64,000 nucleotides of DNA, taken from Escherichia coli. GTDB lineage: Bacteria > Pseudomonadota > Gammaproteobacteria > Enterobacterales > Enterobacteriaceae. Location of the stretch: assembly GCF_044324785.1 (NCBI RefSeq), contig NZ_CP172127.1; one strand, given 5' to 3'. How positions within the stretch are numbered: position 1 is the stretch's first letter; every line of letters starts with the position of its first letter. The notes beneath the pieces are model-generated. The model was given only the letters and a program-made list of their open reading frames with translations. It made no database searches and was not told the DNA's origin. The position numbers and the translations under genes are program-made. This document shows, piece by piece, positions 32,256-35,077 of this stretch.

Positions 32256-32441
32256 TCAGAAAAGATCGCTACGAGTTTCAAGCAGCTCTTCGACATCTTT
32301 GTCTGCCTTGATGATGATCTCATGCTCAATTTTAACGTTCATATTGATAGTGATCGGTTCCTTAGGTGCAGCGACTTCAATGCGAGGCGTACAGCCAACC
32401 AGCATAAAAGATGACGTCAACGCAGCCAGTAAAATTTTCAT
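32256..32441 (-). CDS. ynbE: small lipoprotein YnbE
   Basis: 61-aa ORF with lipobox (FMLVGC); start overlaps ydbH stop (ATGA). Confidence 0.8.
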   Translation of the reverse strand: MKILLAALTSSFMLVGCTPRIEVAAPKEPITINMNVKIEHEIIIKADKDVEELLETRSDLF

Positions 32442-35077
32442 TGTTTTTCCTCACACTCTTTTCCTTGCGGACAGTCATTTCCCGGCAGACGCGCGTTCTG
32501 CTCCAACCATGCCTGGAGATTATCGCCAAAGCGTAAACTGCGCCACAGCGTAAAAATATTCTCTTCATGATGGTAATTAAGGTTTACCGTACCGCTTTTA
32601 CCATCAACGCGACTGGTGCCTGTAATGTTGGCCTGCATGGTTAATAAACCGAGATTATCTAAGTTAATTTTTGTCGATGAACGGCTAATTTCCATATAGC
32701 GCAACCAGTTAATTGCTGAACCCGCGGTCATATTGTCTTTCACTACCGCATCTGCGGTGTCTTTATCCAGCCGCAAGGTCATTGGCCCGCTATTTGCCAG
32801 CCAACCATCTTTCACTATCCATTTTTCGTTGTTTAGCCATAACGGCAATGCACCACTAAATGCCCCGGACATGGCGAATTGTTTCGGATTGACGGCGCTA
32901 ACCAGTTCGCTGGATGAGAGATTATTCAGCCGCAACAGCGCCGGGTCATGTTGCGGCATACGTAATTGTTTCATCAGCACGTTACCGCCTAACACATCGA
33001 CGCTAACATCAGTCAACAGCAATGGTTCTTCTTCTGTCCACGGATAGCGCCCTTGCAAATCAGCCGTAATATTTTTCGCTGTCACCAGATTAATCACTTC
33101 GGCAATTCGCAACGTAACGGGGCCGCGAGTCCCCAGATGCCAGGCTCCATCGGCAAAACGGAAAGGCAGGACAAAATCGACACCGTTAACCTGATTATCT
33201 GGCATCCAGGCACTACCGCCTTTCAACACACCGTGCCCTCCCGCGCGGAATCCTTGTTCAGGCGCAGCAGAAAATGCGACCTGGGCATATAGTTCGCCAT
33301 CGCGTAAGTTCATCTTCCAGTCGGGTGGCACCAGCGGCTGGAATACGGTCAGTGATTGTTTAGGCCACCAGGCGTTACCGCGCAGACGAATACCGTCCCA
33401 GCGACCACTTACCCGAACCGGGCCAATCTCACCAGCATGTAAATCGCCTTTAAAAAGGAAATACGTCGGATCGCGTCCATCGACGCTAAATTTTAAGGTT
33501 GATGGCGGTAACACACTGCCGCCAGTGAACAGCGTTTGCCCGGCGTCCAGTGACAGCGCGCCGCTAAAGGAGGGATGCTGTGCGTCACGTACCCAGACGA
33601 CGGGCTTGTCGAGAATTAGTCGCGGCTTTTCTACCGTCATCGTACCGTATTGTAACTGGTCGAAACCGGTGGAGAGATCGGTCAGCGTAATCGTGCTGTC
33701 ATGCCACTCACCCTTTCCTGCGACGTCCCAGGTGGCATTCATCGGTGTAAAACTGCCTTTTCCCCAGTAGCGCCACTGCCAGCGGCCAGCGTCAGGGAGA
33801 AAATCATTCGCCAGTCCATCCATATGCAGCACGAAATCGCCCAGTTCATTTTCATGCGCCTGCAAAATGGCCTGCAAACGTCCGTCAACACCACGTTGGG
33901 TGACTTTTACACCCGCTAAAGGCCAGCGGATTTCATCGATGTCCAGCGAATCGATGACTCTTCCCTTCGAACGTAATAACGCGCCTGGCTCAAAGGCCAG
34001 CGTTGGGTCAGTCAGACTTCCGCTTAGCTGCGCAGGTAAGCGGGCATATAAAATGAGATCCGCCTGTTTCGCTTCACCGGTCAGCTGCAAAGGCAGCTGG
34101 CTGTTATCCATGCTTAATTTTCCAGGGCCAAAATTAAGCACCGCGTTGCCTTTACCCGCTTGCCCCTGGGTCAGCACACTAAGTCGTCCGCTGACCAGAG
34201 CGTTCTCGAGCCCTGCCTGCCAGTTGTCGACTTTGACACCCAGTCGGCCACTCAAAGGAAAACCTGCATACGGCCAACTCCAGCGACCATCGCTTACGGT
34301 CAATTGTTGACGAGTAATTTGCCACGGCAAATCGAGCAACGGATCGCCGTTATCCCGTGCCAGCACAATCAATTGCCCGCTATTTTCCTGCCAGTCCAGC
34401 TCTGCATCCACCAGTGACGGTTCCTGCGGCAAGTTAAACGTCGCAGTAGTATGCCCACTGACAGGAAGTCCATCCGGCACGAGCGGCATAGTAAATTCCC
34501 CCGCCAGTTTAACCGGCGGCTGATTTTCAAACGCGACGACATCCAGTTCGCTGACTGTAAGTTGTTGCCCTTTCAGCTGGCCTTGAAATTTAACTTTTTC
34601 GCCCTGATAACGCAGTTGCTGGATATCAGAGGTTAATGCGAGAGAGAGTTTTCCCTGCCATTCCTGCCAGGGAGAAAAAATCAGTTTATCGATATTGATC
34701 CAGGTGTTAGGCAGCATGGACTGCCACTGCGCGAGGGTTTTTGGAGCGGCTGGCGATTGCTCCGTCTGCGGCAATTTCGCCAGACAAGCAGAATCAAGTT
34801 CTACCGTGCCGACGTTCAATAACCAGCGGCTGGGATGTGAAAGGCTGGCGTTGGTGATATGCGCAAGCTGACAATCTCCCACCAGATAACGGAGATCGGG
34901 AATGATTAAACCTTTACGCGTAATGCGTGGGCTTTCATCTAATGCAATACGTGTCCCGAGCGGTAGCCAGATGCCCGCCAGCGTGGGAACCCACAAGCCG
35001 AGCGTCATCAGCAGCGTCAACGGCACAAGAATAATCAGTAATAACAGCGCGAGAACGGCTTTATATTTACCCAGCAT
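32438..35077 (-). CDS. ydbH: AsmA-like (TamB/YhdP-related) envelope protein YdbH
   Basis: 879-aa ORF with N-terminal TM anchor and long periplasmic region; synteny next to ldhA. Confidence 0.85.
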   Translation of the reverse strand: MLGKYKAVLALLLLIILVPLTLLMTLGLWVPTLAGIWLPLGTRIALDESPRITRKGLIIPDLRYLVGDCQLAHITNASLSHPSRWLLNVGTVELDSACLAKLPQTEQSPAAPKTLAQWQSMLPNTWINIDKLIFSPWQEWQGKLSLALTSDIQQLRYQGEKVKFQGQLKGQQLTVSELDVVAFENQPPVKLAGEFTMPLVPDGLPVSGHTTATFNLPQEPSLVDAELDWQENSGQLIVLARDNGDPLLDLPWQITRQQLTVSDGRWSWPYAGFPLSGRLGVKVDNWQAGLENALVSGRLSVLTQGQAGKGNAVLNFGPGKLSMDNSQLPLQLTGEAKQADLILYARLPAQLSGSLTDPTLAFEPGALLRSKGRVIDSLDIDEIRWPLAGVKVTQRGVDGRLQAILQAHENELGDFVLHMDGLANDFLPDAGRWQWRYWGKGSFTPMNATWDVAGKGEWHDSTITLTDLSTGFDQLQYGTMTVEKPRLILDKPVVWVRDAQHPSFSGALSLDAGQTLFTGGSVLPPSTLKFSVDGRDPTYFLFKGDLHAGEIGPVRVSGRWDGIRLRGNAWWPKQSLTVFQPLVPPDWKMNLRDGELYAQVAFSAAPEQGFRAGGHGVLKGGSAWMPDNQVNGVDFVLPFRFADGAWHLGTRGPVTLRIAEVINLVTAKNITADLQGRYPWTEEEPLLLTDVSVDVLGGNVLMKQLRMPQHDPALLRLNNLSSSELVSAVNPKQFAMSGAFSGALPLWLNNEKWIVKDGWLANSGPMTLRLDKDTADAVVKDNMTAGSAINWLRYMEISRSSTKINLDNLGLLTMQANITGTSRVDGKSGTVNLNYHHEENIFTLWRSLRFGDNLQAWLEQNARLPGNDCPQGKECEEKQ

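Follow-up and report, generated by a model that had tools for sequence, protein, structure and literature searches.

A ydbH-ynbE-ydbL operon of Escherichia coli with a probably recombined, cryptic-lineage-like ydbL

Phospholipids are believed to reach the Gram-negative outer membrane by way of three redundant systems, one of them encoded by the ydbH-ynbE-ydbL operon; this pathway has long been sought and is a possible drug target. Deletions of tamB, yhdP, and ydbH are synthetically lethal and give lipid-homeostasis defects (PMC8593681, mBio 2021), and the assignment of YdbH to the AsmA-like clan comes from the same work. YdbH and YnbE form a bridge from the inner to the outer membrane, with YdbL as a chaperone-like modulator (PMC11126948, PNAS 2024; bioRxiv 10.64898/2026.03.16.712125). 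The lipidated cysteine of YnbE, its nature as an outer-membrane lipoprotein, and its cross-links to YdbH were shown experimentally in K-12 (PMC11126948). YdbL binds the C-terminal helix of K-12 YnbE, and its fold resembles the ClpP handle region (bioRxiv 10.64898/2026.03.16.712125). The predicted YdbH–YnbE complex is about 180 Å long, short of the periplasm (about 250 Å) (PMC11126948). The genetics of the bridge are shown; lipid transport itself is presumed (PMC11126948, introduction). Grouping of YdbH with TamB and YhdP, bridging the periplasm with YnbE and YdbL as partners, had also been proposed in a sequence-only reading of the DNA described here, and the published K-12 experiments agree with it (PMC8593681, PMC11126948). 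Structure prediction of the complex and the synthetic lethality with tamB and yhdP have both already been reported for K-12 (PMC11126948, PMC8593681).

Among the closest described systems, after the K-12 operon itself, is TamA–TamB, which is functionally redundant with YdbH (PMC8593681). As in YdbH–YnbE, an inner-membrane protein assigned to the AsmA-like β-groove group needs an outer-membrane partner encoded by an overlapping operon gene (tamA and tamB overlap by 4 nt in K-12). The partners differ: TamA is an Omp85 β-barrel encoded upstream, whereas YnbE is a 61-residue lipoprotein encoded downstream. TamB is longer (1,259 residues), and TamA–TamB has no YdbL-like chaperone. YhdP is likewise AsmA-like, anchored in the inner membrane, and redundant with YdbH and TamB in outer-membrane lipid homeostasis (PMC8593681), but, unlike YdbH, it is proposed to be long enough to cross the periplasm without a partner (PMC11126948). 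For YdbL–YnbE, Kumar et al. drew the analogy with CsgC–CsgA, in which a small periplasmic protein stops premature runaway β-strand polymerisation of its client (PMC11126948). The two pairs are unrelated in sequence and fold, and YnbE is a bridge-capping lipoprotein whereas CsgA is a secreted fibre subunit.

Gene layout and translational coupling

In the window, that is, the whole stretch of 64,000 nt analysed, ydbH (35077..32438), ynbE (32441..32256), and ydbL (32251 or 32248..31925) are all encoded on the minus strand. The sequence-only reading named no strand. The span of 32256–35077 that it gave for the whole operon covers ydbH and ynbE, whereas ydbL lies outside it. The features of the operon are as follows.

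35189..35215, minus strand: sigma-70 promoter motif TTGAAA-15-AAAAAT between ldhA and ydbH, some 110 nt ahead of the ydbH start codon (direct pattern search)
32438..35077, minus strand: ydbH coding sequence, 2640 nt, 879 residues, predicted inner-membrane-anchored AsmA-like (repeating β-groove) protein (ORF, PF11739, NF007971)
34997..35059, minus strand: hydrophobic N-terminal membrane anchor, ydbH codons 7–27 (Kyte–Doolittle, model helix)
32448..32452, minus strand: Shine–Dalgarno sequence GAGGA within the 3′-terminal part of ydbH, 7 nt ahead of the ynbE start codon (sequence, same as in K-12)
32438..32441, minus strand: ATGA, the ynbE start codon overlapping the ydbH stop codon (...GAGGAAAAACAATGAAAATT...)
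32256..32441, minus strand: ynbE coding sequence, 61 residues, outer-membrane lipoprotein (PF13617, E=3e-16; 186/186 nt identical to K-12)
32391..32402, minus strand: lipobox L-V-G-C, YnbE residues 14–17, lipidated Cys17, Thr at +2 as outer-membrane sorting residue (regular-expression match)
32246..32258, minus strand: ynbE/ydbL junction TGA-GGTA-ATG-ATG, with the stop codon, a GAGG Shine–Dalgarno sequence (32257..32254) overlapping it, and tandem candidate starts at 32251 and 32248 (sequence)
31925..32251, minus strand: ydbL coding sequence, periplasmic DUF1318 chaperone-like protein, divergent allele (PF07027, E=1.6e-30)

YdbH matches PF11739 over almost its full length (E=1.8e-290; residues 14–862 on profile positions 1–892 of 893) and scores 1399.7 bits against the NCBIfam equivalog NF007971 (cut-off 824). 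These values, together with the Pfam matches of YnbE and YdbL and the annotation of the locus as ydbH/ynbE/ydbL in 5,417/5,426 complete E. coli genomes, exclude a chance pattern of open reading frames. The plus-strand frames antisense to the operon (79–147 residues) were taken as spurious, none having a credible Pfam match. The gene order, the ldhA-adjacent locus, the ATGA overlap, the intragenic Shine–Dalgarno sequence, and the tandem ydbL ATGs are the same as in the K-12 operon (b1381-b1383), whose YdbH is 99% identical in protein sequence; at the nucleotide level, ydbH is 97.46% identical, with nine non-synonymous codon differences. The YnbE protein is identical to that of K-12.

The N-terminal anchor of YdbH, the lipoprotein nature of YnbE, and the signal peptide of YdbL, all three of which had been read from the letters, are supported by the sequence and the family matches. 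In YdbH, the 19-residue Kyte–Doolittle maxima start at residues 6–10 (mean 2.95), and the AF2 model has a helix at residues 4–35 followed by about 50 β strands. The best Foldseek matches in the PDB are β-sheet lipid carriers, namely LptD, the LPD-3 bridge-like lipid-transfer complex, and ApoB100. A relaxed Pfam scan of YdbH gave DUF748 as the sole other family, below threshold (E=0.058), and a shallow YdbH profile (nine sequences, Neff 2.6) gave no match to K-12 TamB by hhalign (probability 0.6%).

The promoter motif occurs once in the window, against 0.01 chance matches expected, and PMC3946193 gives it as a constitutive RpoD promoter for the ‘ydbH--ydbL’ operon. A consensus scan gave 8 promoter-like sites (5.8 expected) and 6 terminator-like sites (4.2 expected), with internal promoter-like sites not in excess. 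It missed the published ydbH promoter, whose spacer, at 15 nt, is unusual. Between the genes, the same scan gave no convincing minus-strand promoter or terminator, and an Rfam scan of 31000–36000 gave no match at E≤1.

The 4-nt overlap of ydbH and ynbE is present at 32441..32438, as had been noted. In K-12, the two genes are strictly coupled by termination–reinitiation, with the intragenic Shine–Dalgarno sequence strictly essential, and in dual reporters, an early stop of ydbH translation abolishes ynbE translation (PMC6728339). YnbE levels also drop without ydbH (PMC11126948). The −99..+30 fragment assayed in the reporter study matches the window at 127/129 positions, the Shine–Dalgarno sequence and the overlap being unchanged; the coupling claimed for this pair is borne out by the K-12 experiments. 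Folding of the −99..+30 RNA at the ynbE start gave no more structure than shuffled sequences (z=+1.5), and a simple fold therefore does not support the start-occluding hairpin proposed by Huber et al. The sequence-only reading had gone from tight coupling to fixed stoichiometry. That YnbE synthesis depends on YdbH translation, and scales with it, stands; a fixed stoichiometry overreaches, since YnbE multimerises. [quoted passage not shown]

At the second junction, the ynbE TGA (32258..32256) is followed by GGTA-ATG-ATG-AAA. The first ATG (32251) gives a protein of 108 residues (MMKRT...) and lies 4 nt past the stop, which is the distance given previously; the second (32248) lies 7 nt past it, gives 107 residues, and is the annotated K-12 start, chosen by most gene callers. 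The GAGG spacing favours the second ATG (5 nt, versus 2 nt for the first). As ydbL starts 4–7 nt past the ynbE stop, with GAGG overlapping that stop, its translation is probably also linked to that of ynbE, judging from the junction sequence. Coupling of this pair is suspected in the literature (PMC11126948), and folding of the −99..+30 RNA at the ydbL start did no better than shuffles (z=−0.2).

The packing of the operon is widely conserved. The 71-nt ydbH/ynbE junction is at least 95% identical in 5,039/5,414 E. coli genomes; about 7% of E. coli genomes have a divergent ynbE and junction. Among relatives, whose loci were drawn from exact-sequence context look-ups, Citrobacter koseri and one with a 47%-identical YdbL share the 4-nt overlap. 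The exact ATGA overlap is not always kept, the spacing being −8, +2, and +9 nt in distant relatives; the tight order ydbH, ynbE, ydbL is kept down to 33% YdbL identity. A Shine–Dalgarno-like motif lies 5–9 nt before ynbE in six of nine related loci and 10–11 nt before it in two (L012 and L015), with a weak purine run in its place in L014. L014 and L015 are short contigs in which, by translation, no YdbH-like frame ends before ynbE, and they support ynbE–ydbL adjacency only. Packing and a ribosome-binding motif 5–11 nt before ynbE (8/9 loci) thus outlast the ATGA overlap, which supports coupled expression as a selected trait. At ydbL, the tandem ATG-ATG is kept in K-12, cryptic Escherichia, and Citrobacter, and more distant relatives have ‘stop-GGAG-N5-start’ at the ynbE/ydbL junction.

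A divergent ydbL joined at the gene boundary

From ldhA through ydbH to ynbE, the window is K-12-like (97.5–100% nucleotide identity). Identity to K-12 is perfect to the ynbE stop codon plus GGT and collapses beyond it, and sliding-window identities switch between 32301 and 32152. Two further features follow from the comparison.

32240..32256, no strand: recombination breakpoint, K-12-like upstream and cryptic-Escherichia-like downstream (sequence identity)
24991..32250, no strand: variant tract of about 7 kb, comprising ydbL, a 465-nt spacer, and the passenger region of a ydbA/BigA-like autotransporter gene (blastn, identity)

In blastn against K-12, window positions 10749–24991 are collinear at 96.1%, and 27176–31476 reach only 78–88%. 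The variant tract resembles a locus of the Escherichia sp. E2748 lineage (L003), to which ydbL and the 5′ part of ydbA are 96–98% identical and the spacer 72–82%. The ydbL allele and its counterpart in the cryptic lineage share 98% identity. Downstream of ydbL, K-12 has feaR-feaB-tynA-paa; this fea-tynA-paa island is absent from the window, which has the ydbA/BigA-like autotransporter gene there instead.

On these identities, the operon is a natural chimera of K-12-type YdbH and YnbE with the YdbL of a cryptic Escherichia lineage. The pairing was seen in 8/8 other E. coli loci sampled, and the ydbH backgrounds carrying the allele are 98.3–100% identical to that of the window. E. coli N3, for which a complete genome is available, has the same arrangement, with 100% identity across the junction. 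YdbL of the window is identical to a protein (P0271) found on 311 E. coli contigs. Polymorphism of ydbL is deep in E. coli as a whole, alleles only 60–80% identical occurring in about 9% of complete genomes.

Relative to K-12, YdbL has 62% amino acid and 66% nucleotide identity, with 41/107 codons differing non-synonymously. It aligns with the K-12 structure (PDB 28oj, ‘Probable chaperone-like protein YdbL’) with E=1.3e-31 over residues 22–107. By inspection, the signal peptide is MKRTLLIAVWIIGLVSSSAMA|LTL, with an A-x-A site, and the alignment with the crystallised mature K-12 protein begins at L22. All residues required by mutagenesis are kept: L24, R28, E35, Y40, N58, R61, Y65, L68, K86, L87, W104, and K107. 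E60A and R90K, both present in the window, are substitutions found to be tolerated. N72 is His and I79 is Val in the window; the alanine mutants N72A and I79A show partial loss and loss of function, respectively (bioRxiv 10.64898/2026.03.16.712125). K-12 YdbL ends in a C-terminal Phe, which the window protein does not have. Among the Escherichia and Citrobacter alleles, 42 alignment columns are invariant. A charge-swap covariation between YnbE E55K and YdbL K70E was considered and rejected, as YnbE K55 occurs together with YdbL K70 in the 71%-identity allele class.

The C-terminal helix of K-12-type YnbE reads ...VEELLETRSDLF and that of the native YnbE of the cryptic lineage ...VEDLLKTRSDLF, so that the source lineage of the allele has E52D and E55K in the YdbL-binding helix. 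If the interface has co-adapted within lineages, the pair in the window may be non-cognate, with an altered affinity of chaperone for client; we consider this rather unlikely. In that case, hitch-hiking with the neighbouring variable autotransporter and paa island would not by itself account for the ydbL polymorphism.

Proposed mechanism, alternatives, and implications

In our main reading, this is the E. coli ydbH-ynbE-ydbL operon, promoter-driven and translationally coupled, encoding a lipid-homeostasis bridge and carrying a recombined ydbL; we put the probability of this joint explanation at about 90%. Judging by published work and by the lack of internal signals, the sigma-70 promoter in the ldhA–ydbH spacer would give a single tricistronic mRNA, on which ydbH would be translated de novo. 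Ribosomes stopping at the UGA of AUGA would reinitiate at the ynbE AUG, aided by GAGGA 7 nt upstream. YdbH would sit with its N-terminal helix in the inner membrane and extend a long β-groove through the periplasm. Periplasmic YdbL would act on the C-terminal helix of YnbE to curb runaway YnbE multimerisation, as shown in K-12. Redundantly with TamB and YhdP, the bridge would maintain outer-membrane lipid homeostasis, phospholipids presumably sliding along the groove; neither tamB nor yhdP is in the window, and redundancy in the source strain is therefore assumed. The sequence from the first ydbL codons through into the neighbouring autotransporter gene would have been replaced by homologous recombination with a divergent Escherichia lineage, and K-12-type YdbH/YnbE would therefore work with a 62%-identical YdbL.

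That the mosaic of K-12-like and cryptic-lineage sequence is an artefact of assembly or binning might be suspected from the very sharp breakpoint inside a short intergenic junction, but the identity of the junction in the complete N3 genome, and the sharing of junction and pairing by eight independent assemblies, two contigs above 4.8 Mb among them, make this extremely improbable. Nor is it likely that the genes are merely adjacent and independently translated, with ATGA a by-product of genome compaction without regulatory meaning. Four-nucleotide overlaps are very common in bacteria, bioBF was uncoupled among the five overlapping E. coli pairs of Huber et al. (PMC6728339), the overlap varies in distant relatives, and folding of the −99..+30 RNA gave no stabilising structure at the ynbE start. 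The reporter data, in which ynbE needs both ydbH translation and the intragenic Shine–Dalgarno sequence, and the fall in YnbE levels without ydbH, contradict it directly; for K-12 ydbH/ynbE, independent translation is already refuted, and we give it very little weight here.

Somewhat less remote, and still improbable, is that the divergent ydbL is a decaying or non-functional passenger that no longer works with K-12-type YnbE, having hitch-hiked with the variable autotransporter because YdbL is dispensable. The 41 non-synonymous codon differences would fit this, as would the changes at the interface-region positions E60, K70, and N72 of YdbL and the E52D and E55K differences in the YnbE helix of the source lineage. 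However, the ydbL frame, signal peptide, Shine–Dalgarno sequence, and tandem start are intact, the 12 listed functional residues are kept alongside the tolerated E60A and R90K, and 42 columns are invariant across the alleles; the allele is also 98% identical to its cryptic counterpart and still occurs in hundreds of E. coli assemblies. A marginally higher, similarly small chance is left to a bridge that is real but has a role other than bulk phospholipid transport, such as the assembly of outer-membrane proteins (the role first proposed for TamAB) or other envelope homeostasis, the lipid phenotypes being indirect. The synthetic lethality and lipid-homeostasis defects with tamB and yhdP (PMC8593681) speak against this, as do the predicted continuous hydrophobic β-groove, common to eukaryotic bridge-like lipid-transfer proteins (PMC11126948), and the presence of the LPD-3 complex and LptD among the best Foldseek matches.

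The operon with a recombined ydbL thus remains our reading. The operon, the gene overlap, the coupling, and the bridge role are already published for K-12; the bridge biology is established there and the window adds nothing to it, so the additions made here are small and comparative. What is new is the chimera, together with the conserved packing in distant relatives, and the rare divergent third gene joined at a gene boundary is the sole unusual feature of the locus. Should the YdbL–YnbE interface prove to be co-adapted, YnbE multimerisation and bridge assembly would be altered in these strains, which would be a ready-made allele-swap experiment. As ydbL lies at a recombination boundary in E. 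coli, natural strains pair very divergent YdbL with unchanged YnbE, and such strains are usable to probe the specificity of the chaperone for its client.

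Gene layout and family assignment

The ydbH-ynbE-ydbL operon has the following features, with coordinates in the window.

35077..32438, minus strand: ydbH coding sequence (2640 nt, 879 aa)
32441..32256, minus strand: ynbE coding sequence (61 aa)
32441..32438, minus strand: ATGA, sequence common to the ydbH stop and the ynbE start
32251 (first ATG) or 32248 (second ATG) to 31925, minus strand: ydbL coding sequence

The sequence-only reading placed the operon at 32256-35077, which covers ydbH and ynbE and leaves out ydbL, reaching 31925. The ATGA overlap it described is present at the ydbH/ynbE junction. 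At the second junction, the TGA of ynbE is followed by GGTA-ATG-ATG-AAA. The first ydbL ATG gives a 108-aa product and lies 4 nt past the ynbE stop, which fits the spacing first proposed; the second, 7 nt past the stop, is the start in the K-12 annotation and is also chosen by most gene callers for homologues. A GAGG overlapping the ynbE stop is 5 nt from the second ATG as compared to 2 nt from the first. In the complete genome of E. coli N3, the RefSeq ydbL of the same allele (L001 9126-9497) is 123 aa long and starts within ynbE, overlapping it by 41 nt, since the ydbL frame has no stop codon back to a TTG at 32329 (region 32252-32329 of the window). Both the internal signal peptide and the homologues point to an over-extended start call. 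The only Shine-Dalgarno (SD)-like motif of ydbH is an AGGA 12 nt 5' of the ATG (35078-35100, minus strand); as it is poorly placed, it suggests that de novo initiation at this first gene of the operon may be weak.

All three products match their Pfam families: YdbH over its full length to PF11739 (YdbH-like, E = 1.8e-290), YnbE to PF13617 (YnbE-like lipoprotein, E = 3e-16) and YdbL to PF07027 (DUF1318, E = 1.6e-30). YdbH scores 1400 bits against the NCBIfam equivalog model (cut-off 824). The predicted membrane features also held: the most hydrophobic 19-residue windows of YdbH begin at residues 6-10, in line with an N-terminal anchor; YnbE has the lipobox L-V-G-C17 followed by Thr; and YdbL has the signal-peptide N-terminus MKRTLLIAVWIIGLVSSSAMA|LTL, with the mature crystallised K-12 protein aligning from L22. 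The 3.5-kb region is single copy in 5,417 of 5,426 complete E. coli genomes, where it is annotated ydbH / ynbE / ydbL and adjoins ldhA exactly as in K-12. The ydbH DNA is 97.46% identical to K-12 (57 synonymous and 9 non-synonymous codon differences) and that of ynbE is identical (186/186). No Rfam family matches the operon region, and the plus-strand ORFs lying antisense to it all lack credible family matches.

Bridge function and translational coupling

[quoted passage not shown] A 2026 preprint (bioRxiv 10.64898/2026.03.16.712125) reports the crystal structure of YdbL, its binding to the C-terminal helix of YnbE, a mutational map and DegP-mediated turnover. The assignment of YdbH as an AsmA-like bridge alongside TamB and YhdP, with YnbE and YdbL as partners, is therefore all published (PMC8593681, PMC11126948).

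The ydbH/ynbE coupling was tested directly in K-12: an early stop of ydbH translation abolishes ynbE translation, and the intragenic SD is 'strictly essential' (Huber et al., PMC6728339). The fragment tested (-99 to +30) is 127/129 identical in the window, with both differences (-65 and -51) upstream of the SD. By near-identity, the results shown in K-12 are transferable: strict ydbH to ynbE termination-reinitiation coupling, the physical interaction of YdbH with YnbE, the binding of the YnbE helix by YdbL, and synthetic lethality with tamB and yhdP. With reinitiation, how much YnbE is made depends on YdbH translation and scales with it. The claim that coupling implies a fixed stoichiometry exceeds the evidence; PMC11126948 sets no number of YnbE per bridge, and the modelled 1:1 YdbH-YnbE complex is ~70 Å short of spanning the periplasm. 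Overall, the observation is confirmed and its interpretation supported; the system and the ydbH/ynbE coupling are already known in detail.

Lipids would move along the groove of YdbH, for which biochemical support is lacking according to the authors (PMC11126948). Translation of ydbL is suspected to be coupled to that of ynbE, and the three genes would share one transcript in the window strain. Genomic SELEX lists a constitutive sigma-70 promoter for the 'ydbH--ydbL' operon (PMC3946193), and its motif occurs once in the window.

35215..35189, minus strand: TTGAAA-15-AAAAAT promoter motif

A consensus scan of the operon found no excess of internal promoter- or terminator-like sites. RNA at the ydbH/ynbE overlap (32412-32540, minus strand) is predicted to be no more stably folded than its shuffled versions (MFE -27.6 against -32.8 kcal/mol on average, z = +1.5). 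The predicted fold leaves most of the SD and AUG of ynbE in loops, at odds with the local occluding structure that, as Huber et al. propose, blocks de novo initiation.

Architecture in relatives and the site 3' of ydbL

Genomic contexts were sampled for YdbL relatives from 98% down to 33% identity, in a family of about 1,100 clusters at 50% identity. The order ydbH, ynbE, ydbL is present wherever the contig is long enough, in cryptic Escherichia, other E. coli allele classes, Citrobacter koseri and four more distant lineages; two short contigs carry the ynbE-ydbL pair alone, and no YdbH ORF ends close by. In Escherichia, Citrobacter and one relative whose YdbL is 47% identical, ydbH and ynbE are spaced at -4 nt; the remainder have -8, +2 or +9 nt. 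Between ynbE and ydbL, most loci have 4-9 nt and three have 24-37 nt, with a recurring 'stop-GGAG-N5-start' pattern. Six of the nine loci have a GGAG/GAGG-type motif 5-9 nt 5' of the ynbE start, and two (L012, L015) have it at 10-11 nt; the ninth (L014) has only a weak purine run. In these loci, the conserved trait is close packing together with an SD rather than the ATGA overlap per se.

One complete genome of a relative (L011 1700-4304, YdbL 56% identical) has ydbH called as two overlapping ORFs (347 and 555 aa). This suggests a frameshift, because a sister genome has a single 868-aa ORF. Several metagenomic contigs encode predicted ORFs of 172-173 aa (P0089, P0099, P0116); the first two have both PF13617 and PF07027 on record and are apparent YnbE-YdbL fusions. 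In the window, ynbE and ydbL are in different frames.

The fea-tynA-paa island, located 3' of ydbL in K-12, is absent from the window. In K-12, this ~19-kb feaR-feaB-tynA-paaZ..paaY island (1446207-1465391) parts ydbL from ydbA; in the window, ydbL is followed by a 465-nt spacer (31460-31924) and then ydbA, an arrangement common to both sampled non-K-12 ydbL allele classes. The BigA/YdbA-type autotransporter ORF (23774-31459, minus strand) is intact, 2,561 aa from an upstream TTG (start unrefined); within it, a 294-bp (98-aa) unit is tandemly repeated 9.8 times at 95% identity (27902-30781). Its passenger region is only 78-88% identical to K-12, where IS2 and IS30 split the orthologue, the pseudogene ydbA. 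In one Citrobacter koseri context (L008 5436-10324), ydbL is directly followed by ynbA-ynbB-ynbC-ynbD-like genes (CDP-alcohol phosphatidyltransferase, CDP-diglyceride-synthase paralogue, hydrolase/methyltransferase and phosphatase), which in the window (15585-20171) are ~12 kb from ydbL; in more distant relatives, hrpA abuts ydbL. The site 3' of ydbL resembles a hot spot for insertions, and a phospholipid-synthesis paralogue cluster may formerly have adjoined the lipid-bridge operon.

The chimeric ydbL allele

Identity to K-12 is perfect to the end of ynbE, stop codon included, and drops sharply within the first few codons of ydbL.

~32240-32256: breakpoint between K-12-like ynbE and divergent ydbL, at the gene boundary

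The window was compared in sliding 150-nt bins with K-12 and with the locus of strain E2748, classed as 'unclassified Escherichia'. From ldhA through ynbE, the bins match K-12 at 93-100% identity (mostly 96-100%) and E2748 at 76-97%. From ydbL onward, identity to K-12 is about 50-65%, essentially unalignable; ydbL and the autotransporter gene start are 96-98% identical to E2748, and the spacer between them 72-82%. The variant tract ends near 24,991, within the autotransporter gene, past which the window is collinear with K-12 at 96.1% up to hrpA. An assembly artefact is ruled out by the complete genome of N3, which has an identical mosaic. In that genome, the closest complete one, ydbK/nifJ (pyruvate:flavodoxin oxidoreductase) is annotated as frameshifted (L001 14545-18068); in the window, it is an intact 1,174-aa ORF (37344-40868, plus strand).

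The window YdbL (31925-32251) is 62% (amino acid) and 66% (nucleotide) identical to K-12. The alleles nearest to it come from unclassified (cryptic) Escherichia strains, E2748 among them. The allele is rare: at ≥99% DNA identity, it is found in only two of 5,410 complete E. coli genomes; the exact protein is on 311 E. coli contigs of a wider collection. E. coli ydbL is deeply polymorphic in general, with 492 genomes at 60-80% identity to K-12 and 143 at 80-90%. About 7% of genomes have a divergent ynbE and junction; in many strains, therefore, the tract takes in more of the upstream DNA, and YnbE moves as a pair with YdbL. In all eight sampled loci, the window-type YdbL is paired with a K-12-type YnbE with the same junction layout, in ydbH backgrounds 98.3-100% identical to the window.

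YnbE ends in VEDLLKTRSDLF in the source lineage of the allele and in the 71%-identity class, and in the K-12 sequence VEELLETRSDLF in the window; the window pairing is thus non-native within the YdbL-binding helix. The window YdbL retains L24, R28, E35, Y40, N58, R61, Y65, L68, K86, L87, W104 and K107, substitution of which abolished or reduced function, and its changes E60A and R90K match tolerated substitutions (bioRxiv 10.64898/2026.03.16.712125). It also differs from K-12 by N72H and I79V. A simple charge swap, in which YnbE position 55 would covary with YdbL position 70, fails across allele classes.

On the simplest reading, ydbL hitch-hikes on the margin of an accessory region prone to recombination (surface autotransporter and paa island), and YdbL alleles are interchangeable. 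No discussion of ydbL polymorphism was found in the literature searched, and the chimeric allele is apparently an undescribed, minor population-genetic footnote. It could act as a natural allele-swap experiment.
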